56,801 nt of DNA, taken from NCBI GenBank assembly GCA_964594235.1, contig CAZQMF010000005.1, forward strand, positions 1 to 56,801, written 5' to 3'. Source of the stretch: an uncultured Acidimicrobiia bacterium (GTDB lineage: Bacteria > Actinomycetota > Acidimicrobiia > Spongiisociales > UBA4744). Positions 8,801 to 24,647 of the stretch are shown piece by piece. The position numbers were made by a program, and so were the translations under genes. Positions within the stretch are counted from its first letter, which is position 1. Each line of letters begins with the position of its first letter. The notes beneath the pieces were generated by a model, which saw only the letters and a list, made by a program, of their open reading frames with translations, was not told the origin of the DNA and ran no database searches.

Positions 8801-9188
8801 GGACTCCCCTCGCACGTTTCGCTTGGATACGCCGTCGGCGTGCCTCGGGGGGCGGTTTGGTCGGAACGCGAGGCGTCTCCTCGACCAGTGCCTCCCGGAG
8901 GGTTGCGACGAGTCGTCGTCTCGCCGTCTGACGGTTGCGCCATTGCGAGCGTTCCTCGTCGGCGCCGACAACCAGCATCCCGCCCTTCAGTGTGAGCCGT
9001 TCGACCAGCTTGCCTCTCGTCACCTCGTCGAACGCAACGGACGCGCCGACGTCGAACACCAACTCCACGCCGGTGTGCGAACGGTTCGCATGCTGACCTC
9101 CTGGACCGCCGGTTGTGCGAAACCGCCATACGAGCTCGTCGGCCGGGATCTCGATCTGCTCCGTGACGCGGAGTGGGTCACCGCTCAT
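8766..9188 (-). CDS. arfB: Alternative ribosome rescue peptidyl-tRNA hydrolase ArfB
   Basis: GGPGGQHAN (GGQ motif), ERSQWRNR, basic C-terminal tail PTKP...KRARG..KRLR. Confidence 0.88.
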   Translation of the reverse strand: MSGDPLRVTEQIEIPADELVWRFRTTGGPGGQHANRSHTGVELVFDVGASVAFDEVTRGKLVERLTLKGGMLVVGADEERSQWRNRQTARRRLVATLREALVEETPRVPTKPPPEARRRRIQAKRARGVLKRLRRPPEAE

Positions 9189-10468
9189 TGCTCACTCCGT
9201 TTCGGTTTGCCGAGGTCGGTTCGGGGAATCCGATCCACGAGGCTCCACAGTTTGGGCACCTTGTAGCCGGCCAGACGATCCCTGGCCCACGCAGCAAGCT
9301 CGGCCTCGTCGACGGTCGGCGCCACAACGACCGCTCGCAGCGTACGTCCCCACCGTTGGTCGTCCACACCGGTAACGACCACATCCACGACCTGCGGATG
9401 CTGCGACAGCACCGCTTCCACCTCGGCCGGGTACACGTTCTCTCCTCCGGTGATCACCATGTCGTCCAGGCGTCCCAGCACGACGAGCTTTCCCTCGTCG
9501 TCCATCATGCCGGCATCACCCGTGCGGTACGGCCCGACTCGTGGGGTCTGTCGCCAGTACCCGGACGACACCATCGGCCCCTCGACAACGATCTCACCGT
9601 GGTCGATGCCGATAGCTACACCGGGGAGCGGTGTGACCGCGCGGGCACCGGGACGACCCGTTGCCACCTGCGCGGCGGTCTCGGTCGCCCCATATGTGGG
9701 TACTGCGGGAATGCCGAGATCGTTCGCCTGCTCGAGCAGTCCGGGAGGTAGTGGGCCACCCCCGACCAGCACCGTCCTGAGCCGCTCGAACGGTCCCTCG
9801 GCGTAGGGGATGAGTCTCGAGAGCATGTTCGGTACGAATGACGCGAACTCCACGTCGTGAAGTAGCGACGCGGTGCGTTCCGGATCGAAGCGACGCTCCA
9901 GAACAACGGTGCCACCCACATGCACCGACCTGGTCAGGATCGAGAAACCGCCCACGTGGTTGAGTGGTAGGACTGCCAGCCAGCGGTCGCCCGAACGGTG
10001 ACCGAGAAACGAGGCCGATGCGTCTGCTGCAGCGAGCAGGTTCCCCGCCGTCAGCACGACGCCCTTGGGTTCGCCGGTCGAGCCGGACGTGGAGAACACC
10101 GCGACCGGTCGGCTCGCATCGGTCTCGTGAGGTTCGATCTCAGGCCCGTCGAGACCCAGCGGCTCGACGAGTTTCGCATCGAACCTTCGGCACAGTTCGG
10201 CGATTTCGGACCCGGTCAGCGCGGTTCCGATCGGCAACAAGATTCCTCCGGCTCGCGGCACGGCGAGCATCGTGATCACCGCCTCGACCGTCGATTCGGC
10301 CACCACCCCAACCAGCTCACCAGGCTCGATCACCGCGCGCACGTGGCCCGCCTCGCGGCTGATCATCTCCTCCGCGTGGGCGTACGAGATCGACTCCCCG
10401 CCCGTCACGAGGAACGCCGTGTCGGGGATGCGTTTCGCCTGTTCCGACGGCCACTCATTCACCCTCAC
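9185..10468 (-). CDS. menE: o-succinylbenzoate-CoA ligase
   Basis: AMP-binding motifs STSGSTGEPKG, YGATET, TGD, GRLDDMVITGGENV, PRTDLGK; lies next to menB. Confidence 0.85.
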   Translation of the reverse strand: MRVNEWPSEQAKRIPDTAFLVTGGESISYAHAEEMISREAGHVRAVIEPGELVGVVAESTVEAVITMLAVPRAGGILLPIGTALTGSEIAELCRRFDAKLVEPLGLDGPEIEPHETDASRPVAVFSTSGSTGEPKGVVLTAGNLLAAADASASFLGHRSGDRWLAVLPLNHVGGFSILTRSVHVGGTVVLERRFDPERTASLLHDVEFASFVPNMLSRLIPYAEGPFERLRTVLVGGGPLPPGLLEQANDLGIPAVPTYGATETAAQVATGRPGARAVTPLPGVAIGIDHGEIVVEGPMVSSGYWRQTPRVGPYRTGDAGMMDDEGKLVVLGRLDDMVITGGENVYPAEVEAVLSQHPQVVDVVVTGVDDQRWGRTLRAVVVAPTVDEAELAAWARDRLAGYKVPKLWSLVDRIPRTDLGKPKRSEQ

Positions 10469-10497
10469 TACAGTACCGGGCAGGCAACGGAGGCTCG

Positions 10498-11388
10498 ATG
10501 ACCACAGTCTCAGAGTTGTTCGACCCCGACCGATGGGTAGAGGTCGAACGGTTCGACGACATCACCTACCACCGTGCGATCGATCAAGGCACCGTACGGA
10601 TCGCGTTCAACCGACCGGAAGTCCGCAACGCCTTTCGTCCGCACACCGTCGATGAGTTGCATGCGGCGCTGGACCACGCACGTATGACCACTGACGTGGG
10701 AGTCGTCCTGCTCACCGGCAACGGCCCGTCTCCCAAGGATGGGGGATGGGCGTTCTGCTCCGGGGGGGACCAACGCATCCGAGGCGCCGACGGCTACCTG
10801 TACGAAGACGCCGATGGCGTCGACGCTGCCCGTCTCGGCAGGCTCCACATCCTCGAGGTTCAGCGCCTCATCCGCTTCATGCCGAAGGTGGTCATCGCAC
10901 TCGTACCCGGCTGGGCCGTGGGCGGTGGCCACAGCCTTCACGTGGTATGCGATTTGACGATCGCGTCACGCGAGCACGGGATCTTCAAGCAGACGGACGC
11001 CGACGTCGCGTCCTTCGACGGAGGCTACGGCTCGGCACTCCTCGCCCGCCAGATCGGGCAGAAGCGGGCCAGAGAAGTGTTCTTCCTCGGACGTGACTAC
11101 TCGGCGGACGAGGCGTTGGCGATGGGTGCGATCAACGCGTCGGTGCCGCATGTCGACCTGGAGAAGATCGGGCTCGAGTGGGCGGCCGAGATCAACGGGA
11201 AGAGCCCGACGGCGGTTCGGATGCTCAAGTTTGCCTTCAACCTGCTCGACGACGGCCTGGTCGGCCAACAACTCTTCGCCGGCGAAGCGACCCGTCTCGC
11301 CTACGGCACCGACGAAGCCAGAGAGGGCCGTGACGCGTTCCTCGAGAAGCGCCGGCCCGACTGGTCCCGCTACCCGCACCACTTCTGA
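10498..11388 (+). CDS. menB: 1,4-dihydroxy-2-naphthoyl-CoA synthase
   Basis: AFNRPEVRNAF, FCSGGDQ, LHILEVQRLIR, FKQTDADVASFDGGYG, GQQLFAGEAT. Confidence 0.97.
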   Translation: MTTVSELFDPDRWVEVERFDDITYHRAIDQGTVRIAFNRPEVRNAFRPHTVDELHAALDHARMTTDVGVVLLTGNGPSPKDGGWAFCSGGDQRIRGADGYLYEDADGVDAARLGRLHILEVQRLIRFMPKVVIALVPGWAVGGGHSLHVVCDLTIASREHGIFKQTDADVASFDGGYGSALLARQIGQKRAREVFFLGRDYSADEALAMGAINASVPHVDLEKIGLEWAAEINGKSPTAVRMLKFAFNLLDDGLVGQQLFAGEATRLAYGTDEAREGRDAFLEKRRPDWSRYPHHF

Positions 11389-11389
11389 G

Positions 11390-12283
11390 ATGCCGCCCGA
11401 TCCCGAAACGAGACTCGGTGCCTGGTACCTGGCATCGCGTCCTCACACGCTCCCTGCGGCGGTCGCCCCGGTCGCCGTGGCAGCGGGGTTGGCCATCAAG
11501 GACGGCGTCTTCCGATGGGGTCCCTTCCTCGCAGCTGCGATCGGGGCGCTCGCGATTCAGGTTGCCGCCAATTTCACGAACGACCTATCCGATGCGCGCA
11601 AAGGAGCCGACAACGAGGATCGCATCGGACCGCGCCGTGCGGTCGCGTCGGGGCTGTTGAGCGAACCGGCGATGACGGTCGCCACCGTCATGGCGTTCTC
11701 GGTCGCAACCGCTGCCGGCGTGTACCTCGTCACGCAGGCCGGTTGGATCATCGTCATCGTCGGAGTGGCGTCGATCTTCGCCACGCTGGGATACGTCGGA
11801 GGGCCGCGACCGTACGGGTACCGGGGGCTTGGTGAGGTGTTCGTGTTCGTGTTCTTCGGCCTGGTGGCAACGGTCGTGTCGCGCTTCGTGTACGACCGAA
11901 GCGCCCCTGCCGATGCCTGGCTACTTGCGATCCCCATGGGCTTTCTGGTCACCGCGATCCTGGTCGCGAACAACGTTCGGGACATCGACACCGATCGAGC
12001 GGCAGGCAAGCGGACGCTGGCAGTGATCCTGGGGCGTGAACGAACGCGCGTCTTCTTCGATGTGTTGGTGTGGGGCGCGTTCGTTCTGGTGGTCGTGTTC
12101 GTCGTGGGAGGGTGGACGCCACCGCTGTCCCTCTTGACGCTGCTGGCGGCCCCTTTGGCCGTCCCGATCACCAGAGCCATTCGCACGGCGACTGACGGTC
12201 CCTCCCTGATCGTCGCTCTGAAGGGGATCGCTCGGCTGGACTTGATCTTCGGCCTTCTCCTTGCGCTCGGGGTCGCTCTGTGA
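11390..12283 (+). CDS. menA: 1,4-dihydroxy-2-naphthoate polyprenyltransferase
   Basis: ASRPHTLPAA, ANFTNDLSD, YGYRGLGE, NNVRDIDTDRAAGKRTL; ATG 1 nt after the menB stop. Confidence 0.92.
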   Translation: MPPDPETRLGAWYLASRPHTLPAAVAPVAVAAGLAIKDGVFRWGPFLAAAIGALAIQVAANFTNDLSDARKGADNEDRIGPRRAVASGLLSEPAMTVATVMAFSVATAAGVYLVTQAGWIIVIVGVASIFATLGYVGGPRPYGYRGLGEVFVFVFFGLVATVVSRFVYDRSAPADAWLLAIPMGFLVTAILVANNVRDIDTDRAAGKRTLAVILGRERTRVFFDVLVWGAFVLVVVFVVGGWTPPLSLLTLLAAPLAVPITRAIRTATDGPSLIVALKGIARLDLIFGLLLALGVAL

Positions 12284-12360
12284 ACCAACCAAGGCAGTCT
12301 CTTATACTCGGGTGCGTCTTACATACAACAGGCTGATACTGCGCGCTCTCGAGGTTCGAA

Positions 12361-12380
12361 TAAGGGACTTTCGGCCCTAT
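12361..12380 (+). promoter_or_regulatory. DosR/DevR-type box upstream of the hexaheme lipoprotein
   Basis: TAAGGGACTTTCGGCCCTAT versus mycobacterial consensus TTSGGGACTWWAGTCCCSAA. Candidate -10 TACAGT at 12412-12417. Confidence 0.7.
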
Positions 12381-12443
12381 TCCAACAGCATGTCGGCAAC
12401 GATCCATGGCGTACAGTTTTGGGGTCGACAGAAAGGGTCGAGG

Positions 12444-13445
12444 ATGAGACGCTCGTTGTTGCTCTTGGCCGTGCTCGCGCTGGTCGTCGCGGCATGCACA
12501 GGCCCGGCAGGCCCGGTTGGACCCGAGGGTCCCCAGGGTGTCGCCGGTCCTGCGGGACCGCAGGGACCGGCAGGAGAGAACGCCACCTTCACCGCGACCG
12601 ACCTCACGTGCACGGAGTGCCACAACGACGGGTCGACGCTCACCGGCAAGGCCCTCGAGTGGTCGACGTCGGGACATGGAATGGGAACCACGTACCTACG
12701 CGCGACCACTGCCTCGTGCGCGGGATGCCACTCGGGCAACGGCTTCACCGACCGCATCACCGCAGGGATCTCGAATCCCGATGAGGTCGCTGATGGCCAG
12801 CACGACCCGACGAGGGAAGACTGCCGCGCCTGCCACCAGATCCACACCACGTACACCAGCGACGACTTCGCGTTGACGACGACGGACCCGGTGGTCCTGT
12901 ACGCGAGCGGCGAAACGTTCGATCTCGGAATGGGCAACCTGTGCGCCAACTGCCACCAGCCGAGGAGAACCCTCCCCGAGGCCGCTGCGGATGGCACGAT
13001 CGAGATCGACAGCACGCACTGGGGCCCGCACCATGGTCCGCAGTCGGCGGTCATGTTGGGCATCGGCGGTTCGACGGACGGTAGCCCCGCGGCCCACTAC
13101 CAGCTGATTGCAGATGGCTGTCCTGCATGCCATATGGGTGAGAACGCCAACCACTCGTTCGCTCCCGACACGGCCAACTGCCAGGGGTGCCACGAGGGCC
13201 TGGACACGTTCGACTACAACGGTGTCCAAACCGAGATCAAGGATCTCTTCGACCAGCTCGGCCAGGCCCTCCAGGCCAAAGGGCTGCTCGATGCGGACCT
13301 GACGCTGGTTCCAGGAAGCTATCCAGCAGCACAAGCAGGAGCCGCGTGGGACTACGAGATGATCAGCGACGACGGAAGCTGGGGTGTGCACAACCCGGGC
13401 TATGTCAAGGCACTGCTCACCGCAGACATCGCAGCCCTGCAGTAG
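12444..13445 (+). CDS. Hexaheme c-type cytochrome lipoprotein with collagen-like stalk
   Basis: MRRSLLLLAVLALVVAA-C lipobox, then (G-X-Y)9. Six CxxCH: CTECH, CAGCH, CRACH, CANCH, CPACH, CQGCH. C-terminal GSWGVHNPGY; 333 aa. Confidence 0.92.
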   Translation: MRRSLLLLAVLALVVAACTGPAGPVGPEGPQGVAGPAGPQGPAGENATFTATDLTCTECHNDGSTLTGKALEWSTSGHGMGTTYLRATTASCAGCHSGNGFTDRITAGISNPDEVADGQHDPTREDCRACHQIHTTYTSDDFALTTTDPVVLYASGETFDLGMGNLCANCHQPRRTLPEAAADGTIEIDSTHWGPHHGPQSAVMLGIGGSTDGSPAAHYQLIADGCPACHMGENANHSFAPDTANCQGCHEGLDTFDYNGVQTEIKDLFDQLGQALQAKGLLDADLTLVPGSYPAAQAGAAWDYEMISDDGSWGVHNPGYVKALLTADIAALQ

Positions 13446-13465
13446 AACACACGTCGACCCTTGTG

Positions 13466-13492
13466 AGAGCGGCGCCCGTCGGGCGCCGCTCT
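13466..13492 (+). terminator. Hairpin downstream of the lipoprotein cytochrome
   Basis: Perfect 12-bp stem AGAGCGGCGCCC-gtc-GGGCGCCGCTCT, 20 nt after the stop. Confidence 0.65.
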
Positions 13493-13501
13493 TGCGTTCT
13501 C

Positions 13502-13595
13502 AATCTTCAGTCTCCAGTCCTCAGTCCTCAGTCAGAACGCTGCCTGCAGCACCGCTAGACCGTGGGCGAGTGTGGACTACCGAGAACCTAGAGCT
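13502..13595. repeat. Heptamer-armed repeat E2
   Basis: AATCTTC AGTCTCC AGTCCTC AGTCCTC AGTC-AGAACGCTGCC ... GGCGAG.. GACTACC GAGAACC TAGAGCT. Confidence 0.75.
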
Positions 13596-13720
13596 GTCCT
13601 CCCGCTTCCTCCCCGGCGCGCCGAGTGTTGGGGGTCCGGCCGCCCCACCCAAGACTGACACAGTGAGATGTCCGAGGCGCAGACGAGGCCGGAGGGGGCC
13701 GTTCCCACCGATCTGGGCCG

Positions 13721-14089
13721 TCAACCCTTGACCGCAGCGACCCAAAACCGGTGAGCCGTCGCTCGGAGCGGTGCACCCGCCTTTTCGACTTCCGAGTGTG
13801 GCCGCTCGAGGTGCGTGCGATCGCGTCGAACGCCGCTACTCGCCACGGGACCGCTCTCAGGTAGGAGACGAGTGCGCCGACGTCTGAGAACTTCTCCAAG
13901 GACCTCATCGCCGGCATTCACCTCGATCCCGGCCTGCTCGTCCGCGGCAAACGTGAGATCCCATCAGGCAACCTCCGTCCGAACCACGCAACACTTCGCG
14001 GAGCCGTCCCGCTGCGTGAGGAAGACTCCACCGGGTGACCCGTTCGGTCGGCGAGTGGCCTCATGCCGGTTCATGATCAGATCGAACGC
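13721..14089 (-). pseudogene. Degraded C-terminal half of a class I SAM-dependent methyltransferase
   Basis: Collinear family motifs spread over two frames with an internal TGA: AFDLIMNRHEA, PGGVFLTQ, WDLTFAAD, FSDVGALVSYLRAVPW, then LERPH..ATAHRFWVAAVKG*. No N-terminal SAM-binding motif. Confidence 0.7.
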
Positions 14090-14183
14090 TCTCAGCCATC
14101 AGCCATCAATGACGAAGCTGCTCACCGCGAGCCGCGGTTCATGATTCGGGCGGATGACTGATGACTCAGGACTGAAGACTCAG
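14090..14183. repeat. Heptamer-armed repeat E3
   Basis: Left TCTC AGCCATC AGCCATC; right GATGACT GATGACT CAGGACT GAAGACT CAG, which overlaps the cytochrome stop codon. Confidence 0.75.
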
Positions 14184-15772
14184 TACCCCTGCTCGGGTGT
14201 GTGGCACGAGGTGCATTTCTCTATCTTCCATGCGCCCCCGATCGGAACGGGATGCTTGAAATCGAGACCGTTGATGCTGGAGTCGAGATCGGCGAGGTTC
14301 GCAGATTGTCCTTGCGCGGTGATGATGTGGCACACGTCACACTCCGACGAGACCGTTGTCCCGTCATACGTCTGGAGATCCGAGTTGTGGCATCTGAAGC
14401 AGCCGTCGTTGGTGAAGTGGCTGAGGTTGTTCTCACGAGTCCTGTAGTCGGTCTTCATCTCGGGGAAGAAGTTCTGGTTGTAGATCACCACTAGCGTCGC
14501 GGCCGCCTGGTCGACCTTCGCCTGATCCACGGTGCCCGCATACTTCTCTGAATAGAACGCCTCGAGACCCGTCCTGATGGCTTCGTCGGCCTGGTCCCTG
14601 GTCGTGTAGGGAGCGTTCAGGAGGTTGAGCCCCTCCCATCGCACGAACGGCAGGTCGGTCGAGATGGTGCCCTTGGTCATCTCGAGGTTGATAGCGGTGG
14701 CCGGCGGCTCGTAGTCGTGACTTGGCCTGTTGTGGCAGTCGATGCAGTCGAGCGTCCTCACTTCGATGCCTGCGGCGTTCAAGTCGACCTGCTGACCGTT
14801 CTTCCAGTACTCGGTCACCTTGTCGGTCGTCTTGTCGGTCAGCCGAACCCAGACCATGTCCTGTCGTTTCGGATCGTCGGTCGCGTACTCGATCGTGGTG
14901 CTGCCGAGCATATGCCAGTGGATGCCTCCCACCTGGCCGGTTCTCGGGTCACCGCCACCGATCTTGACAGCGAGACTGATCGTCCACGGAGTGTTGTTCT
15001 CGTCCGTGCGGAAGTACGTCTTCGTGACGAGCTTGTCGCCGTAGAACTGCTGGGGCCAGTGACATCCTTCGCACGTCTCCTGCGCGGGACGGAGGCTGGT
15101 CACCGGAGTGACGATAGGCCGATCGTAGGTATTGGTGATCGTCTTCCACACCTGCCGCAAACCGTCGATCTTCGACCTCACGAAGAACGATGCGCCCGGT
15201 CCGATGTGGCACTGGGCGCAGGCAACCTTGGCGTGCGGCGAATGCTGGTATGTGACCCACTCCGGTTCCATTACGGTGTGGCACGACTCGCCACAGAACG
15301 ACGACGAGTCGGTCACCTCGTACCCCTTGAACCCGCCCCATGCGACCGTACCAACGAGTACAGCGGAAAGGACGCCGAATATCGCGAGGGACCGCATGTA
15401 CCTGGGGCTGGACGGCTCAACGCGAAGATTGAACCGGATGCGCTCGCCGCGCTTGCGGGCTCTCACGACCTGGATCCGGATCGCGATCGCAAACAGAATC
15501 GCGCCCAACAGGACGATTACAGGGAACCCGATGAAGGTAACGAGTCCCCTATACGGGTTGGAGACGGGTGAACTGAGGTCGACGAACGCCAGGACCGCGA
15601 ATCCCAACAGCCCTGCGAGTACCAACGCCCCACCGACGGCAGCGAGCGGATGTCGGTACAGGCTCCGTACCTCGGTCTTCACCTCTTCGGTGTCGGTGCC
15701 GTTGCCGCCGGTGTTCTCGTCGCTACCGGTGTTCTCGGTGTTCTCGGCCGAATCCTCGATCTCGTCGCTCAC
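14180..15772 (-). CDS. imcH: ImcH-like membrane multiheme cytochrome c (NapC/NirT N-terminal domain, 7 heme motifs)
   Basis: Three N-terminal TM helices. CGESCH, SPHAKVACAQCHIGPGA, LRPAQETCEGCHWP, GIHWH, DCIDCHNRP, NFFP, GCFRCH, CDVCH, CTSCH. GTG start with GAGGAGG RBS. Confidence 0.88.
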   Translation of the reverse strand: MSDEIEDSAENTENTGSDENTGGNGTDTEEVKTEVRSLYRHPLAAVGGALVLAGLLGFAVLAFVDLSSPVSNPYRGLVTFIGFPVIVLLGAILFAIAIRIQVVRARKRGERIRFNLRVEPSSPRYMRSLAIFGVLSAVLVGTVAWGGFKGYEVTDSSSFCGESCHTVMEPEWVTYQHSPHAKVACAQCHIGPGASFFVRSKIDGLRQVWKTITNTYDRPIVTPVTSLRPAQETCEGCHWPQQFYGDKLVTKTYFRTDENNTPWTISLAVKIGGGDPRTGQVGGIHWHMLGSTTIEYATDDPKRQDMVWVRLTDKTTDKVTEYWKNGQQVDLNAAGIEVRTLDCIDCHNRPSHDYEPPATAINLEMTKGTISTDLPFVRWEGLNLLNAPYTTRDQADEAIRTGLEAFYSEKYAGTVDQAKVDQAAATLVVIYNQNFFPEMKTDYRTRENNLSHFTNDGCFRCHNSDLQTYDGTTVSSECDVCHIITAQGQSANLADLDSSINGLDFKHPVPIGGAWKIEKCTSCHTPEQGY

Positions 15773-15792
15773 GGTCCCTCCTCGAGGCACCG

Positions 15793-15859
15793 ACGGTAGC
15801 CGGTGCCCAGTCCCCTCCCGTAGGGCTGATAGACCCTTCTACGGGACTCCTGTCCCCTT
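15793..15859 (-). promoter_or_regulatory. imcH-like promoter: two adjacent DosR-type 20-mers plus -10 TACCGT
   Basis: 15840-15859 TACGGGACTCCTGTCCCCTT (perfect GGGAC-N4-GTCCC) and 15820-15839 GTAGGGCTGATAGACCCTTC. The -10 at 15798-15793 would centre the boxes near -63.5 and -43.5. Confidence 0.7.
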
Positions 15860-15916
15860 TTCCTCCACCCCTCAGCCATAACCGGATGGCCGAAGATGTC
15901 GTCCCAACCATAATCG

Positions 15917-17221
15917 TCACAGGCCCCGCACGAGTTCCTCGATGGACGGCCCCTCCACCACCTCGATGCCGTACGTCACACGGGTTCCAGGCATCTCGAG
16001 ATCGAGCAACGGCAGCAGGTTGACGGGTGTGGCGACGATCACCACATCCGGCTTGGATCGTCTGATCGTTTCTGCGAGTTCGTCCCGCTGGACCTGCCCA
16101 TAGCCCATGGCGGGAAGCAGCGCCCCGATGTGCGGGTACTTCTCGAACGTTGCAGCGATCGACCCGACGGCGAACGGTCTCGGGTCGATCAGTTCGGCCG
16201 CTCCTCCGGTCTGGGCCGCGATGACTCCCGCACCGTACGCCATGCTTCCGTGGGTGAGGGTCGGACCGTCCTCGATGACGAGCACCCGCTTCCCCACGAT
16301 GAACTGGGGATCGGCGACGGTGATCGGTGACGTCGTCTTCACGAGGATGGCACCGGGGTTTGCGAGCCGCACATTCCGAACCACCTGGTCGACGTCATCC
16401 GGTTTGGCCGTCCCGACCTTGTTCACGACGACCACGTCGGCCCGTCGAAGGTTGGCTTCACCCGGCCAGTACCGCAGTTCGTGTCCGGGACGGTGGGGAT
16501 CGACGACGCAGATGTGCAGATCCGGTCGATAGAACGGCAGGTCGTTGTTGCCTCCATCCCACAGGATGACGTCGGCCTCTTGCTCGGCGACCTTCAGGAT
16601 GGCCCCGTAGTCGACACCGGCGAAGATCACCCCACCCTGTTCGATGTAGGGCTCGTACTCCTCGCGCTCTTCGATCGTGCAGTCCGCATCGATGAAATCC
16701 TGGTACGTCGCGAACCGCTGGACGGCCTGCGCGGCGAGGTCTCCGTAGGGCATCGGATGCCTGACTGCCGCGACCCGCTTCCCGTCGCCGGCGAGGGCGT
16801 GCCATACGGCTCGACTGAGTGGCGACTTGCCGGAACCCGTCCGAACGGCTGTGACTGCAACGACAGGGAGACGCGAGTCGATCATCGTCTCTGAGCCGAG
16901 CAACTCGAACGATGCGCCGGCCGCCACCGTCCGAGCGGCCATGTGCATCACATGCTCATGGGTGACATCCGAGTACGAAAAGACCGCGGTGTCGACCGCA
17001 TATGCCGCAATCAATCGCTCCAACTCCACTTCGGACACGATCGGGATGCCGTCGGTGTACAGAGGTCCGGCGAGCGCGGCGGGGTATCTCCGATCGTCGA
17101 TGTTGGGGATCTGTGTGGCAGTGAACGCGACCACCTCTACGTCGGGATCATCGCGATACATCACATTGAAGTTGTGGAAGTCCCGCCCTGCGGCGCCCAA
17201 GATCAGTATCCGCTTGCCCAT
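15917..17221 (-). CDS. Cyclic 2,3-diphosphoglycerate synthetase-like P-loop NTPase (COG2403-like)
   Basis: ILGAAGRDFHNFN, AVRTGSGKS, VRHPMPYG, CTIEEREEYE, WDGGNND, EDGPTLTHG. Confidence 0.8.
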   Translation of the reverse strand: MGKRILILGAAGRDFHNFNVMYRDDPDVEVVAFTATQIPNIDDRRYPAALAGPLYTDGIPIVSEVELERLIAAYAVDTAVFSYSDVTHEHVMHMAARTVAAGASFELLGSETMIDSRLPVVAVTAVRTGSGKSPLSRAVWHALAGDGKRVAAVRHPMPYGDLAAQAVQRFATYQDFIDADCTIEEREEYEPYIEQGGVIFAGVDYGAILKVAEQEADVILWDGGNNDLPFYRPDLHICVVDPHRPGHELRYWPGEANLRRADVVVVNKVGTAKPDDVDQVVRNVRLANPGAILVKTTSPITVADPQFIVGKRVLVIEDGPTLTHGSMAYGAGVIAAQTGGAAELIDPRPFAVGSIAATFEKYPHIGALLPAMGYGQVQRDELAETIRRSKPDVVIVATPVNLLPLLDLEMPGTRVTYGIEVVEGPSIEELVRGL

Positions 17222-17251
17222 ACCTATCCTCCTCGGTTCCATTCTCGTCCG

Positions 17252-18010
17252 TCAACTGCTCCCGACCAGAAACCGGCCCACCTCGTCAGCGACCTTGTCG
17301 GGCGCTTCACCAATCACAGCATGACCCGCTCCTTCCACCGTGACAAGCATCCCGCGTGGAGCTGCAGAGGCGATTCGCGTGCCGATCGCAACGTAGGCAG
17401 GGTCGAGTGCACCAGCGACGACCAGCACTGGCATCCGGAGCTCCCCCAGTCGGCCACCGAAGTATGGTTGAGAGCCCTGACCCATTCCGCGAAGCGCGGC
17501 TGCGAGCCCCGCTGTGCGGTTCTCGAGACGAAGCTTCCTGTCCCGTTCACACCACTCGGATCCACGACGGTGCAGGCCATCGAGCAACGGCTGAGCGAGC
17601 CAGCGATCGATGAACGGCTCGAGTCCCTCGCTCTCGATCCGGTCGGCGAGCACGGCGTCCGACTTCAGCCGATCTCTGCGCAGGCCTGGATCGGCGATTC
17701 CGGGGCTGGACGACACGAGGATCAGGTGAGATACCGACCGGGGATACTCGACGGCTACTCCCAACGCGATGCGCCCGCCCTGTGAGTAGCCGAGGAGGGG
17801 CCTGCGCTCGACGGTCTGCGCCACCGACCTCACGGCCGACTCGAAGGCGGGCGGAATGCCACCCGCTGCTCCATGGCCGGGCAGATCCGGTGCGTCCACC
17901 TGCCACGGAAGGAACGCAGCGAACTCCTCGAACATCCCTCCGTGCTGTGTGAAGCCATGCAACGCGACGATCGCCGGTTCGACGCCTGGGAATCTTCGAA
18001 CGGTTTCCAT
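17252..18010 (-). CDS. menH: SHCHC synthase (alpha/beta hydrolase)
   Basis: LHGFTQ, GYSQGGRIAL, FIDRWLAQPLL, LRGMGQGSQP, GAGHA; divergent from menD. Confidence 0.85.
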   Translation of the reverse strand: METVRRFPGVEPAIVALHGFTQHGGMFEEFAAFLPWQVDAPDLPGHGAAGGIPPAFESAVRSVAQTVERRPLLGYSQGGRIALGVAVEYPRSVSHLILVSSSPGIADPGLRRDRLKSDAVLADRIESEGLEPFIDRWLAQPLLDGLHRRGSEWCERDRKLRLENRTAGLAAALRGMGQGSQPYFGGRLGELRMPVLVVAGALDPAYVAIGTRIASAAPRGMLVTVEGAGHAVIGEAPDKVADEVGRFLVGSS

Positions 18011-18018
18011 CGCCTGTA

Positions 18019-19656
18019 TTGTTGCTCCCCGTGAACGACAGCGCCTATCAGGCGGCCGCCCTATTCGTCGATGCGCTCGCACGACTCGGGCTTCGCCACG
18101 CGTGCGTCACGCCCGGATCTCGAAGCACTCCCCTCGCCCTGGCGTTCGCCGAGCATCCTGACGTCGCCGACTGGATCCACCACGACGAACGGTCATCGGC
18201 GTTCTTTGCCCTCGGAATCGCGAAAGTGACTCGAACTCCCGCCGCGATCATCACCACATCCGGCACAGCTGCGGCCGAACTCCTCCCTGCTGCCGTCGAA
18301 GCACGCCACGCGGGGGTTCCCCTGCTCTTGCTCACCGCCGACCGGCCCCCCGAGCTCAGAGGAATCGGCACTCCGCAGACGATCGACCAGGTGAACCTGT
18401 TTGCGAACGCGACCCGAATGTCGCTCGATGTCCTCCTGGTGGACATGCCTACGGGAGAAGTCGAGGCGCTCGCCGTGACGGCGTGGAGTGAGGCGGTGCG
18501 AAGACCCCGTCGCCCCGTCCACATCAACATGGCATTCCGAGAACCCTTCGTACCCACGACACTCGACCGACCCAGGGCGTCGGTGACTCCGACGCGAACA
18601 ACCGATCCCGTCCTCGAGGAGGACGAGCTCCGCGAGATGTCATCGATGCTCGGTGCGAAGCGTGCCCTGACGATTGCCGGCCCAATCGACGAGCCGGGGT
18701 TCCCCGACCATGTTCTCGCGTTGGCGACGACCTCCGGGTGGCCGATCGTCGCGGACCCTCTGAGCCAGCTCCGGAGCAAGGTTTCCGATCTCGTCCTCGA
18801 TGCCGGGGACGCCCTGTTTGCCGCCGGTCGTCTGCCGGCGAAGCCCGAGGTGATCGTCCGGCTCGGGGCAACGGTCACGTCGAAGGCGATCTCCTCCTGG
18901 CTGGCGGATCATCGGAAGATTCCACAGGTCGTCGTCGACGAAGAAGGTCGGGACGCGTCGCGCAGCGCAGCGAAGGTTCTCTCCATCGACCCGATCACGT
19001 TCGTTCGTTCACTCCAAGTGGAGCCGGCCCCCGACGAGTGGGCCGACCAGTGGACGGACGCCGACCGGCGAGCACGCGCCGCGCTTCGAGGATCACCATT
19101 TCCTTCGGAACCAGCGGTGGTCGAGATCCTTGCCGAGTGCCTCCCCATCGAGTCGGTGCTCTTCGTGGCATCGTCCATGCCGATTCGCAATGTCGACCGA
19201 TACCTTTCACGGGTCGATGCCCGCGTCCTGTCCAACAGGGGCGCAAACGGGATCGACGGCCTGATCTCATCTGCACTGGGTGTCGCAGCGACGGGGCGGC
19301 GCACATTCGTACTGGCCGGTGATCTCTCGTTGTTGCATGACGTAGGTTCCCTTGCGACTGCCGTTCGACTCGACCTTCCGATCACGATCGTCGTCGTGAA
19401 CAACGATGGCGGCGGGATCTTCTCGTTCCTCCCCCAGGTGGCGCTTCCCCGCCACTTCGAGCGTGTCTTCGGCACACCCCACGGCCTCTCGTTCGTGCCC
19501 ATCGCCGACGCATTCGGGCTCCGCGCCGTGCACGCCGACACCGCCGATCGGCTGGCATCGGAACTCGCCCTACCAGGCCTCATAGAGGTGACGACCGACA
19601 GGGCTCGCGAAGTCGAGCTGCAGGCAAGAGCCCTCGAGAGAGTCGCGTCGTCGTAG
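18019..19656 (+). CDS. menD: SEPHCHC synthase (ThDP-dependent)
   Basis: PGSRSTPL, DERSSAFFALG, TTSGTA, LTADRPPEL, SNRGANGIDG, GDLSLLHD, NNDGGGIF. Start may be GTG at 18031. Confidence 0.95.
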   Translation: MLLPVNDSAYQAAALFVDALARLGLRHACVTPGSRSTPLALAFAEHPDVADWIHHDERSSAFFALGIAKVTRTPAAIITTSGTAAAELLPAAVEARHAGVPLLLLTADRPPELRGIGTPQTIDQVNLFANATRMSLDVLLVDMPTGEVEALAVTAWSEAVRRPRRPVHINMAFREPFVPTTLDRPRASVTPTRTTDPVLEEDELREMSSMLGAKRALTIAGPIDEPGFPDHVLALATTSGWPIVADPLSQLRSKVSDLVLDAGDALFAAGRLPAKPEVIVRLGATVTSKAISSWLADHRKIPQVVVDEEGRDASRSAAKVLSIDPITFVRSLQVEPAPDEWADQWTDADRRARAALRGSPFPSEPAVVEILAECLPIESVLFVASSMPIRNVDRYLSRVDARVLSNRGANGIDGLISSALGVAATGRRTFVLAGDLSLLHDVGSLATAVRLDLPITIVVVNNDGGGIFSFLPQVALPRHFERVFGTPHGLSFVPIADAFGLRAVHADTADRLASELALPGLIEVTTDRAREVELQARALERVASS

Positions 19657-19658
19657 CG

Positions 19659-20786
19659 TCAGCCGGTCAGGACATCGAGGATCGCTGCGAGTTTCGCCTC
19701 GGTCTCGGCCACCTCGGCTGCCGGGATGGAATCCCGGACGATCCCGGCCCCCGCGTAGACCTGCGCGATCGAGCTACGAAACAGAGTCCCTCGGAGAGCG
19801 ATGATGGCCTCTCCGTCGCCGTTCTCATCCATCCAGCCCAGCGCTCCCGCGTACCACCCCCGGTCGAATGGCTCGTTCTCTTTGATGAAGAGGAGTGCAG
19901 CATCGGTTGGCGTGCCCGCAACGGCAGGGGTCGGGTGCAACGCCTGCGCGAGGTCGATGAGGCTGACGCCCGGGAGCGCCGTTCCAACGATCTCCGTCCC
20001 GAGGTGTTGAATGTTGGGCAGGCGAACCACCGATGGCGTGTCGGGGACGGCCAGCTCGGTCGTGACGGCCCTCAAGATGCGAGCGACCTCGTCGACGACG
20101 ATTCGATGTTCCTCGCCTTCCTTCGAAGCAGCGAGCAGTGCGATCGCGATCCGTTCGTCGTCATCATGCCCTGTCCCACGAGGGGCGCTCCCAGCGAGTG
20201 GGAACGACCGGACGGACGCGCCATGTCTCTCGATGAGCAGTTCCGGGCTGGCACCGAGAAACGCGGTCCCCTGCTCGATCCACCCGTAGAGGAACGTGTT
20301 CGGAAACCGTTCACCCATCGGGGCAAGAAGATCGAAGGGATGCCCGCGCTCCACGGCGACGTCGACCCGCCGAGCGAGCACGACCTTCGACAGCACGCCG
20401 GAGTCGATCTCGTCTATAGCTCGTCTGACGAGCCCGGCCCACTCATCCGCCGTGGGCACTTCGGCAACCACCCGACCTCTCGGCACATCGGGCGGCCCCG
20501 GCACACGAAGTGACTCGAGGAGACCCTCCGCACCGGGCGCGGTATGGACCCGAACCCCCTCGTCGTCCTTGACGACGGTTACCGCCGGAACCACGACGCT
20601 GCCGGCCGACTTCGGCTCGAAAGGAAGCACGAACATGCACCGTGGACCCTCGGGACGCGGCGTTCTCAGATCGGCGGAGCGCCACGCGACACCGATCCCG
20701 GCGAACTCCTCCCTGCCCCGGAAGTAGACAACCGGGTGCCCGGCCGCGGCCCCGGCCCTGGCTACGTCGAAGGGTTCCGGTTCCAC
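19659..20786 (-). CDS. menF: Isochorismate synthase
   Basis: KVVLARR, GASPELL, LAGSAPRG, KEGEEHRIVV, LHPTPAVAG, RGWYAG, AGAGIVRDS. Start uncertain. Confidence 0.88.
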   Translation of the reverse strand: MEPEPFDVARAGAAAGHPVVYFRGREEFAGIGVAWRSADLRTPRPEGPRCMFVLPFEPKSAGSVVVPAVTVVKDDEGVRVHTAPGAEGLLESLRVPGPPDVPRGRVVAEVPTADEWAGLVRRAIDEIDSGVLSKVVLARRVDVAVERGHPFDLLAPMGERFPNTFLYGWIEQGTAFLGASPELLIERHGASVRSFPLAGSAPRGTGHDDDERIAIALLAASKEGEEHRIVVDEVARILRAVTTELAVPDTPSVVRLPNIQHLGTEIVGTALPGVSLIDLAQALHPTPAVAGTPTDAALLFIKENEPFDRGWYAGALGWMDENGDGEAIIALRGTLFRSSIAQVYAGAGIVRDSIPAAEVAETEAKLAAILDVLTG

Positions 20787-20796
20787 GGCGGGCAGT

Positions 20797-21576
20797 CTAC
20801 GAGTCGAAGTACCCGACGATCTCATCGGCCACCAAACCGGGCCGTTCCATCGGAAGGAAGTGCGACGCGCCGGCAACGATCTCGTAGCGGGCGTTGGGCA
20901 TTCGTCTGGTCAGAGCGGCGGTCGACGCGTCGCTGAGCGTCGTGGAGTTCTCCCCGGCGAGTACAAGTACAGGACACCCAACTTCGTCGAGTCGGTCGTA
21001 CAGGCCGTGCGCTGTCGCGGCTCGGTACACCTCGGCCTCCACTTCCGGCCTGCACTTGAGCCACCAGCGGCCGTCTCGCTCGACGAATCCTCCGTCGACG
21101 TAGGCGGCGAGGACATCGGGACTCCAGGACGCAAAGGGGTCTTTGCCCCGGTAGTTGTCGATGATGGCCTCGCGGCTATGGAATCCGTCCCGCCGCCGCA
21201 GCGCGCCTTCGGCAAGAGGAATGTGCTCCATTCTCCTGTACGGCGGGGGGAAGATGATCGGTTCGATAACGACGAGCGCCTTGAACCGGCCGGGTCGTAG
21301 CACCTCCGCCATGAGCAGTGTTGCTCCTCCCATCGAGTGGCCCACCCCGATTGGGTGACCATCGAACGGTTCGAGGACGTCCAGCGCGTGGCGAGCGAAG
21401 GACCACCAGTCCGCCGGGGGAACGAACCCGTTGGCATCGCCGTGACCGGGGGCGTCCCAGGCGGTGAACGGTCGCCCGGCGAGCTGTTCTCCGACCGGCC
21501 CCCACACCTCCTTGCAGAATCCGGTCGCGTGGGCGAACGCGACGAACTCGGAGTTCACTCTCGTCTCAACCGTCAT
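20797..21576 (-). CDS. Alpha/beta hydrolase
   Basis: HATGF, DAPGHG, nucleophile elbow GHSMGG, C-terminal HFLPME. Confidence 0.88.
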   Translation of the reverse strand: MTVETRVNSEFVAFAHATGFCKEVWGPVGEQLAGRPFTAWDAPGHGDANGFVPPADWWSFARHALDVLEPFDGHPIGVGHSMGGATLLMAEVLRPGRFKALVVIEPIIFPPPYRRMEHIPLAEGALRRRDGFHSREAIIDNYRGKDPFASWSPDVLAAYVDGGFVERDGRWWLKCRPEVEAEVYRAATAHGLYDRLDEVGCPVLVLAGENSTTLSDASTAALTRRMPNARYEIVAGASHFLPMERPGLVADEIVGYFDS

Positions 21577-22201: not shown

Positions 22202-22629
22202 GTGCACGGTCCCTTCACCACGAGCACATCGCACGAGGAAAGGTGCACGACCCTGTGGCTCGTGCTACCCAACACGAGCGCTGCGAGTTCGCCCCGTCCT
22301 CTCGATCCGACGACGATGAGCTCAGCCTCGACCTTCTTGGCGTACTCGACGAGCGCATCCGCCGGATATCCGTCCAGGTCGACCTTGTGGATGTCCACCG
22401 AGGTATCGACAATCAGTGGATCGACGACACTCCATACGAGTTCCCGCTGCGACTGCACCAATGTTGAGAGATCGGCCGGCACCTGACTCAGCGCTCCGAG
22501 CAGGCTGCTCGGGATGTGCGATACGTGCACGACATGGAGATCGGTCCCTCGAGACTCGGCAAACTCCACCGCTCGTCGAACCGCGAGAAGCGAGTGCTCC
22601 GATCCGTCCGTCCCAACGACGATACTCAT
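22198..22629 (-). CDS. Universal stress protein (UspA family)
   Basis: IVVGTDGSEHS, LIVVGSRGRG, LGSTSHRVVH; start MSIVVG overlaps the response-regulator stop. Confidence 0.93.
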   Translation of the reverse strand: MSIVVGTDGSEHSLLAVRRAVEFAESRGTDLHVVHVSHIPSSLLGALSQVPADLSTLVQSQRELVWSVVDPLIVDTSVDIHKVDLDGYPADALVEYAKKVEAELIVVGSRGRGELAALVLGSTSHRVVHLSSCDVLVVKGPCT

Positions 22630-23294
22630 GACTCCTCCCACTGTTCCGGCGGATACTCCCGCTCGCGTTTGGCCGCGAGTCGTGCCGAGTAGGCCGCAGC
22701 TTCCGTCCTGCGTGTCATTCCGAGCTTGTTCAGAAGGTTCGACACATAGTTCTTGACCGTCTTCTCGGCGAGGAACAGCTCTTCTGCGATCTCCTTGTTC
22801 GTGAGGCCCTCTGAGATCAAGTCGAGGATCTTGCGCTCCTGGGGCGACAGCCTCGCCACGAGCGGATCGGTTGGTTCGTCGCCACGGATCCGACGGAAGA
22901 CATGTTCGGTCATCGTCGGGTCGAGGAGCGACTCGCCGGCGCCGACTCGGCGGATGCTGTCGATCAGCTGGCGAGCATCGACGCGCTTGAGGACGTAGCC
23001 CGACGCACCGGCCATGATCGACGCGAACAGAGCCTCTTCGTCGGCGAATGACGTCAGCATCAGCACGCGCACGTCCGGCCAGCGTGAACGGATCTCTCTG
23101 CACGCCTCGATGCCGGTCCCGTCTGGCAAACGCACATCCATGACGACCACTTCCGGCCGGTCGTACCCCACACGGCGAATGGCCGATTCGACGGTGCCCG
23201 CCTCGCCGACGACCTCGAGGCCGTCCTCTCCGCCGAGCAGCGTCACCAGACCCTTTCTCACGATCTCGTGGTCATCGACGATCAGAATCCGCAC
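22626..23294 (-). CDS. dosR: DosR/DevR-like NarL-family response regulator
   Basis: VDDHEIVRKGL, DVRLPDG, LTSF, GASGYVLK, GESLLDP. HTH EGLTNKEIA..FLAEKTVKNYVS carries the same recognition helix as M. tuberculosis DevR. Confidence 0.85.
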   Translation of the reverse strand: MRILIVDDHEIVRKGLVTLLGGEDGLEVVGEAGTVESAIRRVGYDRPEVVVMDVRLPDGTGIEACREIRSRWPDVRVLMLTSFADEEALFASIMAGASGYVLKRVDARQLIDSIRRVGAGESLLDPTMTEHVFRRIRGDEPTDPLVARLSPQERKILDLISEGLTNKEIAEELFLAEKTVKNYVSNLLNKLGMTRRTEAAAYSARLAAKREREYPPEQWEES

Positions 23295-23330
23295 ATGTCC
23301 TCCTTACCTTTTCAGGCTACCGGGTCGGGC

Positions 23331-23491
23331 GGTCTTGGGTTCTCGGTCTTGGGTTCTCGGTAAGAGGGATCCCTTCGCTCGCCCTTCTGAGTTCATGGTT
23401 CTCGGTCTTCGATGAGACCGTCGCTGTCCCGTGGACTCGTGGTCTCCGGGATCGCGCTCCTACCCACAACCGACAACCGAGAACCCAAGAC
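23331..23491. repeat. Heptamer-armed repeat E4, followed by GC hairpin 23493-23511
   Basis: (GGTCTTG GGTTCTC)x2 GGT ... ACCCACA ACCGACA ACCGAGA ACCCAAG AC; the arms share a 16-nt perfect complement. Confidence 0.85.
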
Positions 23492-23531
23492 GGGGCGGGC
23501 TCCGCCCGCCCTGGCACTAGCCTGATCGACA

Positions 23532-24647
23532 ATGACGCGGCCCATGATCCCCGCCTCGCGGCTCTCCGACCTGATCGGTGCGGCAGCACGTGTCACCGGT
23601 CAGACCGAACTCACCGCAGTCCTGGAGACGGTGGTGGCAACTGCCATGGACCTGACGGGAGCACCGTACGGCGCCCTCGGCGTCGTCAGCGAGAACGGCC
23701 AGCTCATCCAGTTCGTCCATCAGGGCATGCCCGAGAAGATCGCTGAGCTGATCGGTGCACCTCCGAAGGGTCGGGGTCTGCTCGGTGCGGTTACATGGCA
23801 GCCAAACCCGATCCGGCTCGAGAATGCCCAATCCCACCCTCGTGCCAGCGGCTTTCCCAAGCATCATCCGCAGCTCGACGGCTTTCTCGGTGTCTCGATC
23901 CGCATCGGCGGCGACGTATTCGGAAACCTGTATCTCGGAGCGTCGCAAGGAGGCTTCACAGAACAGGATGAGACGCTGATCCAGGCCCTCGCGCTCATCG
24001 CAGGGTCGGCGATCTCGACTCTCAGGCTGCAGGCGCGGCTTCGGAGGGCCGCCGTCCTGGAGGACCGTCAGCGCATCGCTCGGGACCTCCACGACTCCAT
24101 CATCCAGGACCTCTTCGCCGTCGGTCTGTCCCTCCAGGCTCTCACATCCCGCCTCTCCGACCCCGAGATGCGCACGAGCCTGGAGGAGGCCGCACTGCAT
24201 CTCGACGACTCGATCACCGCGCTGCGACGGTTCATCTTCGATCTTCGTCCGGCCACCCTGGGCACGCGCAATCTCAAGGACGAGCTGTCGGAGCTGCTCG
24301 GACGCCTGGCCGTTCCCTACGAAGCAAGCATCGGCATCGGCGTGACCGGTCCAGTCGACGACCTCGTTCCGGAACTGGTCGACAACGTTCTCCAGATCAC
24401 GAGGGAAGCGGTGAGCAACGCGTTGCGCCACTCGGGAGCGGACGTGGTGAGTATCTCCGTCAGTCGAGGCATCGATCGGCTCGTATTGACGGTCGTCGAC
24501 AAGGGCAAGGGCTTCGACATCGAATCGATCGCCCGCGGCATGGGTCTCGACAACATCCGGAGCCGCGCCGAGACGGCAGGGGGCGAGGCCGACGTGGAGA
24601 GCAAGGTTGGTGAGGGGACCACCGTTCGGGTGGTGCTTCCTCTCTAG
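23532..24647 (+). CDS. DosS/DosT-like sensor kinase: single heme-type GAF + HisKA_3 + HATPase
   Basis: YGALGV, GFPKHHP, FGNLYL (DosS GAF-A motifs); IARDLHDSIIQ H-box; EAVSNALRH, VVDKGKGF, GMGLDNI. Confidence 0.88.
   Translation: MTRPMIPASRLSDLIGAAARVTGQTELTAVLETVVATAMDLTGAPYGALGVVSENGQLIQFVHQGMPEKIAELIGAPPKGRGLLGAVTWQPNPIRLENAQSHPRASGFPKHHPQLDGFLGVSIRIGGDVFGNLYLGASQGGFTEQDETLIQALALIAGSAISTLRLQARLRRAAVLEDRQRIARDLHDSIIQDLFAVGLSLQALTSRLSDPEMRTSLEEAALHLDDSITALRRFIFDLRPATLGTRNLKDELSELLGRLAVPYEASIGIGVTGPVDDLVPELVDNVLQITREAVSNALRHSGADVVSISVSRGIDRLVLTVVDKGKGFDIESIARGMGLDNIRSRAETAGGEADVESKVGEGTTVRVVLPL

Follow-up and report, generated by a model that had tools for sequence, protein, structure and literature searches.

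A predicted hexahaem lipoprotein with a conserved collagen-type stalk beside an ImcH-like gene in an uncultured Acidimicrobiia bacterium

The hexahaem gene and its product

The open reading frame (ORF) at positions 12444-13445 on the forward strand of a 56.8 kb stretch of DNA, hereafter the window, encodes a protein of 333 residues in which a lipoprotein signal peptide is followed by a collagen-like stalk and a hexahaem c-type cytochrome domain. The DNA originates from an uncultured Acidimicrobiia bacterium with an 88%-complete genome of 1.94 Mb. A gene for an ImcH-like protein is the convergent neighbour, and the cytochrome pair is embedded in a menaquinone cluster (window 9185-20876). The features are collected in Table 1. 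Translation agreed with a preliminary description made from the DNA letters: the cysteine of the lipid anchor (Cys18) is followed by one residue (T19) and then by nine Gly-X-Y triplets (residues 20-46), six CxxCH motifs are present (beginning at C56, C92, C127, C167, C226 and C246), and the additional histidines listed there were all recovered (SGH78G, QIH134, TH192WGPH196H197, ANH237SF and GVH316N). ATG 12444 was taken as the correct start because close homologues open with the same MRRSLLLL signal. An alternative, longer ORF starting with TTG at 12261 overlaps menA.

The signal peptide, MRRSLLLLAVLALVVAAC, consists of a basic n-region (MRR), a hydrophobic h-region (SLLLLAVLALV) and the sequence VAAC, which agrees with the lipobox pattern [LVI][ASTVI][GAS]C. 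Cys18 was kept in 92% of 126 diverse family members, and the mature protein would have 315 residues. Genes for both Lgt (PF01790, 60.4 bits, contig C22) and LspA (PF01252, 120.2 bits, contig C6) were found in the genome. The stalk reads GPA GPV GPE GPQ GVA GPA GPQ GPA GEN without interruption and is separated from the first haem motif, CTECH, by ATFTATDLT. The CxxCH motifs, matching distal histidines, the export signal and the presence of maturation genes together identify the protein as a multihaem c-type cytochrome. CcmC/CcmF-like genes for system I cytochrome c maturation were located at C59:635-2850. ResB was not found in the genome, and the control Corynebacterium glutamicum, another actinobacterium, has ResB. 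In one Chloroflexota locus (L001) ccmE/F/H adjoin the hexahaem gene. Downstream of the gene, the hairpin that probably serves as a terminator had a folding energy of -31.4 kcal/mol (z -4.3), and none of 200 shuffled sequences was equally stable. It was not called in a scan for consensus terminators, a T run being absent. A scan for sigma-70 promoters gave no match.

Table 1. Positions of the features of the hexahaem gene, its neighbours and the candidate regulators within the window
Feature	Position	Strand	Basis or remark
Signal peptide with lipobox V-A-A-C, residues 1-18	12444..12497	+	Translation; Cys18 is the predicted lipidated N-terminus of the mature protein
T19 and collagen-like stalk of nine Gly-X-Y triplets, residues 20-46	12498..12581	+	Translation
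Hexahaem c-type cytochrome domain, residues 47-333 (287 aa)	12582..13442	+	Six CxxCH; AlphaFold2; Foldseek
G+C-rich hairpin of 16 bp, probable terminator	13462..13496	+	17 nt past the stop codon; RNA fold
DosR/NarL-type inverted-repeat box GGGACTTTCGGCCC	12364..12377	+	67 nt before the hexahaem ATG; pattern GGGACN4GNCCC
Second DosR-type box GGGACTCCTGTCCC	15843..15856		53 nt before the imcH-like start; pattern GGGACN4GNCCC
ImcH-like heptahaem menaquinol oxidase (predicted), convergent neighbour	14180..15790	-	3 transmembrane segments, CX3CH, six CX2CH
menE-like	9185-10468		Pfam/HMM
menB-like	10498-11388		Pfam/HMM
menA	ends 12283		Pfam/HMM
menD-like	18019-19656		Pfam/HMM
menF-like	19659-20876		Pfam/HMM
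Divergent two-component pair, candidate regulators of both cytochrome genes	22626..24647		Pfam
Response_reg+GerE regulator	22626-23294	-	Pfam
GAF-HisKA_3 kinase	23532-24647	+	Pfam

The head was covered by generic multihaem matches only in Pfam, and PF22113 matched it in part (residues 46-136). The decahaem model TIGR03507 scored 30 bits against a cut-off of 209.3, which does not place the protein among the MtrC/OmcA cytochromes. An AlphaFold2 model of residues 47-333, calculated from a diverse alignment, reached a pLDDT of 95.6 and a pTM of 0.91. An earlier model from 73 close homologues had a pLDDT of 75.7 and a poor N-terminal half, and this was remedied by the diverse alignment. The best Foldseek match in the PDB was OcwA of Thermincola potens (6i5b; E 1.5e-6, TMq 0.58, rmsd 5.0 A, 22% identity over 294 columns), followed by OmhA of Carboxydothermus ferrireducens (6qvm; E 3.2e-4, TMq 0.49) and then by NrfA and octahaem nitrite reductases. 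This ranking bears out the fold that had been guessed earlier from the GVHNPxY tail. A globular haem domain together with a bundle of three helices is common to OcwA, OmhA and the window protein, and in the model the C-terminal bundle is formed by domain residues 212-232, 249-264 and 272-286. Such a bundle is typical of the OcwA/OmhA/NrfA superfamily (PMC6703420). When PDB sequences were searched, with either the protein itself or a profile of its family as query, only collagen peptides and short haem-motif matches came back, and OcwA was not among them. The relation to OcwA is one of fold alone. OcwA has nine haems and OmhA eleven, whereas the window protein has six and is too short for the beta-sheet domain of OcwA. 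Both are cell-surface reductases of Gram-positive bacteria, and the host of the window is, judged by its lineage, probably a monoderm. Mature OcwA begins with EKPAD after ordinary signal cleavage (PMC6703420), in contrast to the lipobox and collagen-type stalk found here. As modelled, the head is related to the surface reductases of Gram-positive bacteria but pruned to six haems.

The histidines 78, 134, 196, 237 and 316, all outside the haem motifs, were kept at 98% or more in the 126 diverse members, and H218 was kept at 84%. Position 197, which adjoins the invariant H196, is occupied by His in 70% of these proteins and by Tyr in 22%. In OcwA, HH motifs are located above its two five-coordinate haems (PMC6703420), and the single H196-H197 pair of the window protein may correspond to them. 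From this pattern of ligands, one haem of the head may be open, i.e. five-coordinate. The pentahaem nitrite reductase NrfA has a catalytic CxxCK haem, whereas CxxCK was absent from the 333 residue protein and from all of the approximately 270 family members inspected. The preliminary description had named a catalytic haem site, for example of the CxxCK kind, as a sign of an enzyme that would refute it. CxxCK is lacking, but with five highly conserved histidines for six haems and the OcwA-like H196-H197 pair, a catalytic site may still be present.

Conservation and distribution of the stalk

More than 2,295 homologues were obtained in a word-indexed search, and the best 120 of these, 51-86% identical to the window protein, were examined. 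All six CxxCH motifs were present in all bar one, which had five. Every N-terminally complete protein among the 120 carried 7-18 uninterrupted Gly-X-Y triplets almost immediately after the lipobox cysteine, and the sole case without a stalk was one N-terminally truncated fragment. Lipobox and 6-18 triplets were observed in nearly all copies from Anaerolineae and Acidimicrobiia. The haem domain alone, used as query against 1.84 billion representatives, gave 1,222 matches at E <=1e-3, of which 190 were at <=1e-30. Runs of at least four triplets occurred in 102 of the 136 N-terminally complete matches, all 102 with a lipobox cysteine once six cases missed by the lipobox pattern had been corrected, and in none of the 17 matches that lack this cysteine. 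In 154 of 194 sequences, 7 or 9 residues separate the stalk from the first haem cysteine.

The composition of the stalk varied considerably. Pro was found at X in 67% of the triplets in the branch of the window protein. A low-G+C branch of the family has GKD, GTD and GVD triplets and almost no Pro, and still keeps Gly at every third residue. The conserved trait is therefore the Gly period itself and not proline richness. Where Lys occurs at Y, Asp follows at the next X in nine of ten cases (a K-G-D pair). Comparison of the stalk codons with those of three close relatives (L007-L009) revealed 23 synonymous and 6 non-synonymous differences, and in the Gly codons 9 synonymous and no non-synonymous differences, a pattern which indicates that the glycines are under purifying selection. 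All four Gly codons are used, which argues against a recent slippage array, and Tandem Repeats Finder (TRF) detected only two 2-copy traces of 9 bp. Translated in all six frames, the 1.94 Mb genome contained no second Gly-X-Y run of six or more triplets. Judged from these comparisons, the stalk is a selected, family-wide feature of collagen type and not a product of chance.

The Pfam Collagen model (PF01391) scored the window protein at 20.3 bits, below its cut-off of 27.2, and is passed by relatives with longer stalks. Weak HMM matches were seen to prokaryotic collagen families of the Scl/BclA/Lcl type. As in Scl1 and Scl2 of Streptococcus pyogenes, BclA of Bacillus anthracis and Lcl of Legionella, the Gly-X-Y sequence is free of hydroxyproline and Pro is favoured at X. 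GKD-type triplets are a feature of Scl proteins as well as of the low-G+C branch. Scl1, BclA and Lcl have tens to hundreds of triplets. About 79 are present in the collagen domain of Scl2 (PMC7824840), compared to 9 in the window protein and 7-18 in its family. Scl, BclA and Lcl are anchored through LPXTG or a basal layer and act as adhesin or spore filament, whereas the window protein would have its lipid at the N-terminus, beside the helix, and a redox cargo. No recognised trimerisation domain is present in the window protein.

A scan with one genome per species identified at least 551 species with a relative of the protein. The closest were metagenome-assembled genomes of Acidimicrobiia (74-89%), and most others were Anaerolineales at about 55%. 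The architecture was kept at 35-89% protein identity across several phyla. Within the phylum, 3 of the 401 genomes sampled had the gene, and so low a number suggests horizontal acquisition.

The Gly-X-Y run was missing in 10 of 84 related loci. Nine of these also lacked the lipobox, namely Planctomycetota-type copies with ordinary Sec signals and a few Chloroflexota copies, and the tenth looks frameshifted. In five family members (P0245, P0258, P0260, P0263 and P0274) a single SLH motif stands between signal peptide and haem domain in place of lipobox and collagen. At the position of the stalk, P0250 and P0252 have linkers rich in Ser/Thr/Pro and P0358 has leucine-rich repeats. A FastTree phylogeny of the heads requires a minimum of 10 well-supported switches from stalked to unstalked forms or back. 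Across these sequences the firm correlate of the stalk is the lipid anchor. The stalk was also considered as a marker of monoderm hosts, but this was weakened by the low-G+C branch, which suggests that diderm members of Bacteroidota type carry it too.

In five other genomes (2-6 Mb), every sense-strand match to Pfam Collagen sits in a multihaem cytochrome with a lipobox. These cytochromes are paralogues of the hexahaem protein, members of an octahaem family with about 415 aa, a protein of 795 aa with at least 10 haems and one of 443 aa. Unrelated multihaem cytochromes with lipobox and Gly-X-Y stalk were noted in Chloroflexota (L012:1179, L025:2553, L032:4415, L079:3742, L070:5150; L095, L089, L096, L098 and L099). 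They include octahaem proteins of about 415-450 aa, the 795-aa protein and the 443-aa protein. Because it is shared by such unrelated cytochromes, the stalk looks like a portable module. The stalked hexahaem gene has tandem paralogues in L066, L069 and L070.

The ImcH-like neighbour and the shared upstream box

ImcH homologues are defined by three N-terminal transmembrane segments, an adjacent, atypical CX3CH motif and then 5-9 CX2CH motifs in about 495-519 aa (PMC6295460). The convergent neighbour of the hexahaem gene encodes 530-536 aa with transmembrane segments at 52-70, 86-104 and 135-153 and CGESCH at residue 166. It thus carries the full signature, with three segments, CX3CH and six CX2CH, and the ImcH identity assumed in the preliminary description holds by that definition (PMC6295460), which underlies the ImcH-dependent comparison with Geobacter sulfurreducens. 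In 33 of the 84 related loci (39%) the hexahaem gene has a relative of the imcH-like gene within 8 kb, and the Actinomycetota copies are 53-92% identical. Genes for imcH have been reported beside other c-type cytochrome genes (PMC6295460), and ImcH has been tied to extracellular acceptors in Geobacter (PMC4251993). The pair described here differs from the Geobacter system in that it lies inside a men cluster of an Acidimicrobiia genome and in that the likely acceptor is a lipid-tethered stalked cytochrome. Geobacter ImcH feeds soluble periplasmic cytochromes and outer-membrane conduits.

Two alpha/beta hydrolases in the men cluster may be MenH. The men genes that precede the hexahaem gene in the window are found upstream of it in L007-L009 too. 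The gene directly upstream of the imcH-like gene and on the same strand (15917-17242, minus strand, 441 aa) was considered as a partner and dropped, a relative being present in only 1 of 84 loci. It encodes a P-loop protein (GSGKS) of the cytoplasm, for which Pfam gave no significant family.

The inverted repeat GGGACN4GNCCC occurs at two sites in the window, one before each of the cytochrome genes. The box is conserved in other Actinomycetota loci. In L007, L008 and L009 the orthologues have the identical box about 80 nt upstream, variants are found upstream in L003, L051 and L059, and boxes also precede the imcH-like genes in L007, L038 and L058. The two-component pair in the window is a candidate for the regulation of both cytochrome genes. 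In Chloroflexota loci a HisKA_3 kinase and a GerE regulator are located directly upstream of the hexahaem gene, with the kinase about 1.3 kb upstream in many. The placement of the boxes suggests that a regulator of DosR/NarL type induces both genes jointly, which would fit respiration at low oxygen.

Proposed electron path and possible trimerisation

The protein is predicted to be a c-type cytochrome exported by Sec and lipidated on Cys18, and would reside at the outer face of the cytoplasmic membrane. Menaquinol would be oxidised by the adjacent ImcH-like heptahaem protein, and electrons would flow from there to the stalked hexahaem head. The onward acceptor could be a metal oxide or humic substance, another cytochrome, or a small substrate at the one possibly open haem. 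The stalk, joining head to anchor and under selection, would be an extended spacer of about 8 nm (27 residues x about 0.29 nm) and probably keeps the haems a fixed way off the membrane, beside the quinol-oxidising partner. Three lipidated chains may zip into a collagen triple helix and form a trimer with 18 haems, in which nucleation, needed by so short a helix, would come from the clustering of the lipid anchors and from the head domains. A lipid-tethered head of OcwA type that receives its electrons from ImcH, is probably induced at low oxygen and stands on a stalk of about 8 nm, probably a triple helix, is the best overall explanation of the locus, and is given a probability slightly above even (about 0.55).

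For trimerisation through a triple helix taken separately, the chance is put at about one half. Several features point indirectly towards it: the Gly period is present in two compositional regimes, the glycines appear to be under purifying selection, K-G-D pairs are frequent, the stalk adjoins the lipid anchor, and sister proteins carry a single SLH motif at its position. K-G-D pairs are known as strong stabilisers of the triple helix from host-guest peptide work, and lipid tails reportedly stabilise short collagen helices in the peptide-amphiphile studies of Fields and Tirrell. A single SLH domain is reported to work as a homotrimer (PMC12285257). SlpA of Deinococcus and Thermus forms trimers with a single SLH, which resembles the hexahaem family members with one SLH; the window protein itself has none, and the analogy speaks for a three-fold head only in an indirect way. 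A more far-reaching version, tentative and put at somewhat less than even odds, is that lipobox and collagen stalk are a portable module for building homotrimeric 18-haem "cytochromes on a rod". The acyl-anchored chains would nucleate a minimal, hydroxyproline-free helix at the membrane surface, whose length could be tuned genetically over 2-18 triplets (about 2-15 nm), and the three-headed assembly of OcwA type would be level with the ImcH head or reach partly into the wall.

Several observations weigh against the best overall explanation. Hydroxyproline-free helices of Scl2 with 75-237 residues melt at 23.5-35.6 C (PMC7824840), so that 27 such residues alone should be unstable or marginal. 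OcwA is a mixture of monomer and dimer and not a trimer (PMC6703420). In some relatives the run is down to 2-5 triplets or its place is taken by a Ser/Thr/Pro-rich linker, and a plain spacer may therefore suffice. The family tree implies 10 or more gains or losses of the stalk, which makes it look dispensable for the head. The transfer of electrons from ImcH to the hexahaem protein is based on adjacency, seen in 39% of loci of which many are short, and on the shared box. The number of box matches in the window, 3 compared to 1.7 expected, was not above chance, and only their positions are telling.

The same observations could be explained if the Gly-X-Y segment were an extended or flexible tether of a single chain, similar to polyproline II, for a monomeric or dimeric cytochrome with neither triple helix nor trimer. 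The melting of Scl2 fragments 3-9 times longer than this short helix, the monomers and dimers of OcwA, the relatives with few triplets or other linkers and the frequent gain and loss of the stalk would all fit such a tether, and Pro at X in 67% of the triplets already favours an extended single chain. A tether, however, needs no Gly at exact third positions, and the period is uninterrupted over 7-18 triplets in the closest N-terminally complete homologues, survives the full change of X and Y to GKD/GTD/GVD and has accepted only synonymous changes at Gly. The K-G-D pairs and the single-SLH variants, which point to three-fold assembly of the head, are likewise not accounted for. The tether is considered less likely than the best overall explanation and is the strongest of the alternatives. 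That the repeat is a functionless chance run of low complexity or a recent slippage array could be proposed for a gene in a G+C-rich genome with two weak 9-bp traces. This is refuted: the six reading frames of the genome contain no other such run, the repeat is conserved at 35-89% identity in several phyla, and its codons have diverged synonymously.

A further explanation concerns the head and is compatible with either model of the stalk. The head could mainly be an enzyme, a reductase of NrfA/OcwA type for nitrite, hydroxylamine, sulfite or a similar substrate, acting at one five-coordinate haem. Only five non-motif histidines reach 98% for six haems, with H218 at 84% and His or Tyr at position 197 in 92%, and the fold family is rich in enzymes of the nitrogen and sulfur cycles. 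OcwA, with its HH motifs, reduces nitrite and hydroxylamine in vitro (PMC6703420). Against this stand the absence of CxxCK from the family members inspected, the lack of nitrogen- or sulfur-cycle genes beside the hexahaem gene within the window, and the possibility that H218 is the sixth ligand. The neighbour is, in addition, a protein like ImcH, which in Geobacter is linked to acceptors outside the cell (PMC4251993). A mainly enzymatic head is thus regarded as improbable. The lipid-tethered electron-transfer protein with an ImcH-like donor is the preferred reading, and as the protein is small (315 mature residues), the choice between tether and rod is directly testable by standard expression and biophysics.

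Among the literature that could be searched, no paper was found that joins collagen-type repeats to multihaem cytochromes or to electron transfer outside the cell. The window contributes the strict link between lipobox and stalk, the restriction of the stalk to cytochromes in six whole genomes scanned, the Gly period independent of composition, the SLH alternative to the stalk, and a case from Acidimicrobiia with ties to ImcH, to menaquinone synthesis and to a DosR-type box. Sediments, soils and digesters harbour Anaerolineae and related uncultured lineages in abundance, and little is known of the way in which these pass respiratory electrons beyond the membrane. With a conserved stalk of collagen type, extracellular electron transfer would gain a structural principle, and bacterial collagen a role beyond adhesion. 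If correct, the rod module would be a previously unrecognised envelope-crossing architecture in Chloroflexota, Acidimicrobiia and other phyla, and the stalk would be the shortest natural functional collagen helix. The Acidimicrobiia copy, together with the ImcH-type quinol oxidase, menaquinone synthesis and the DosR-type switch, would form a compact, testable respiratory unit.

The 88%-complete genome yielded just two further multihaem cytochromes, namely a fragment of nine or more haems, cut off at the end of its contig (C19:29510-30331), and a five-haem membrane protein similar to NapC/NrfH (C20:13864-14457). In one Actinomycetota locus (L003:4291-7426) the hexahaem gene is directly preceded by genes for an iron-dependent repressor and for ferrous-iron uptake (feoA/feoB).

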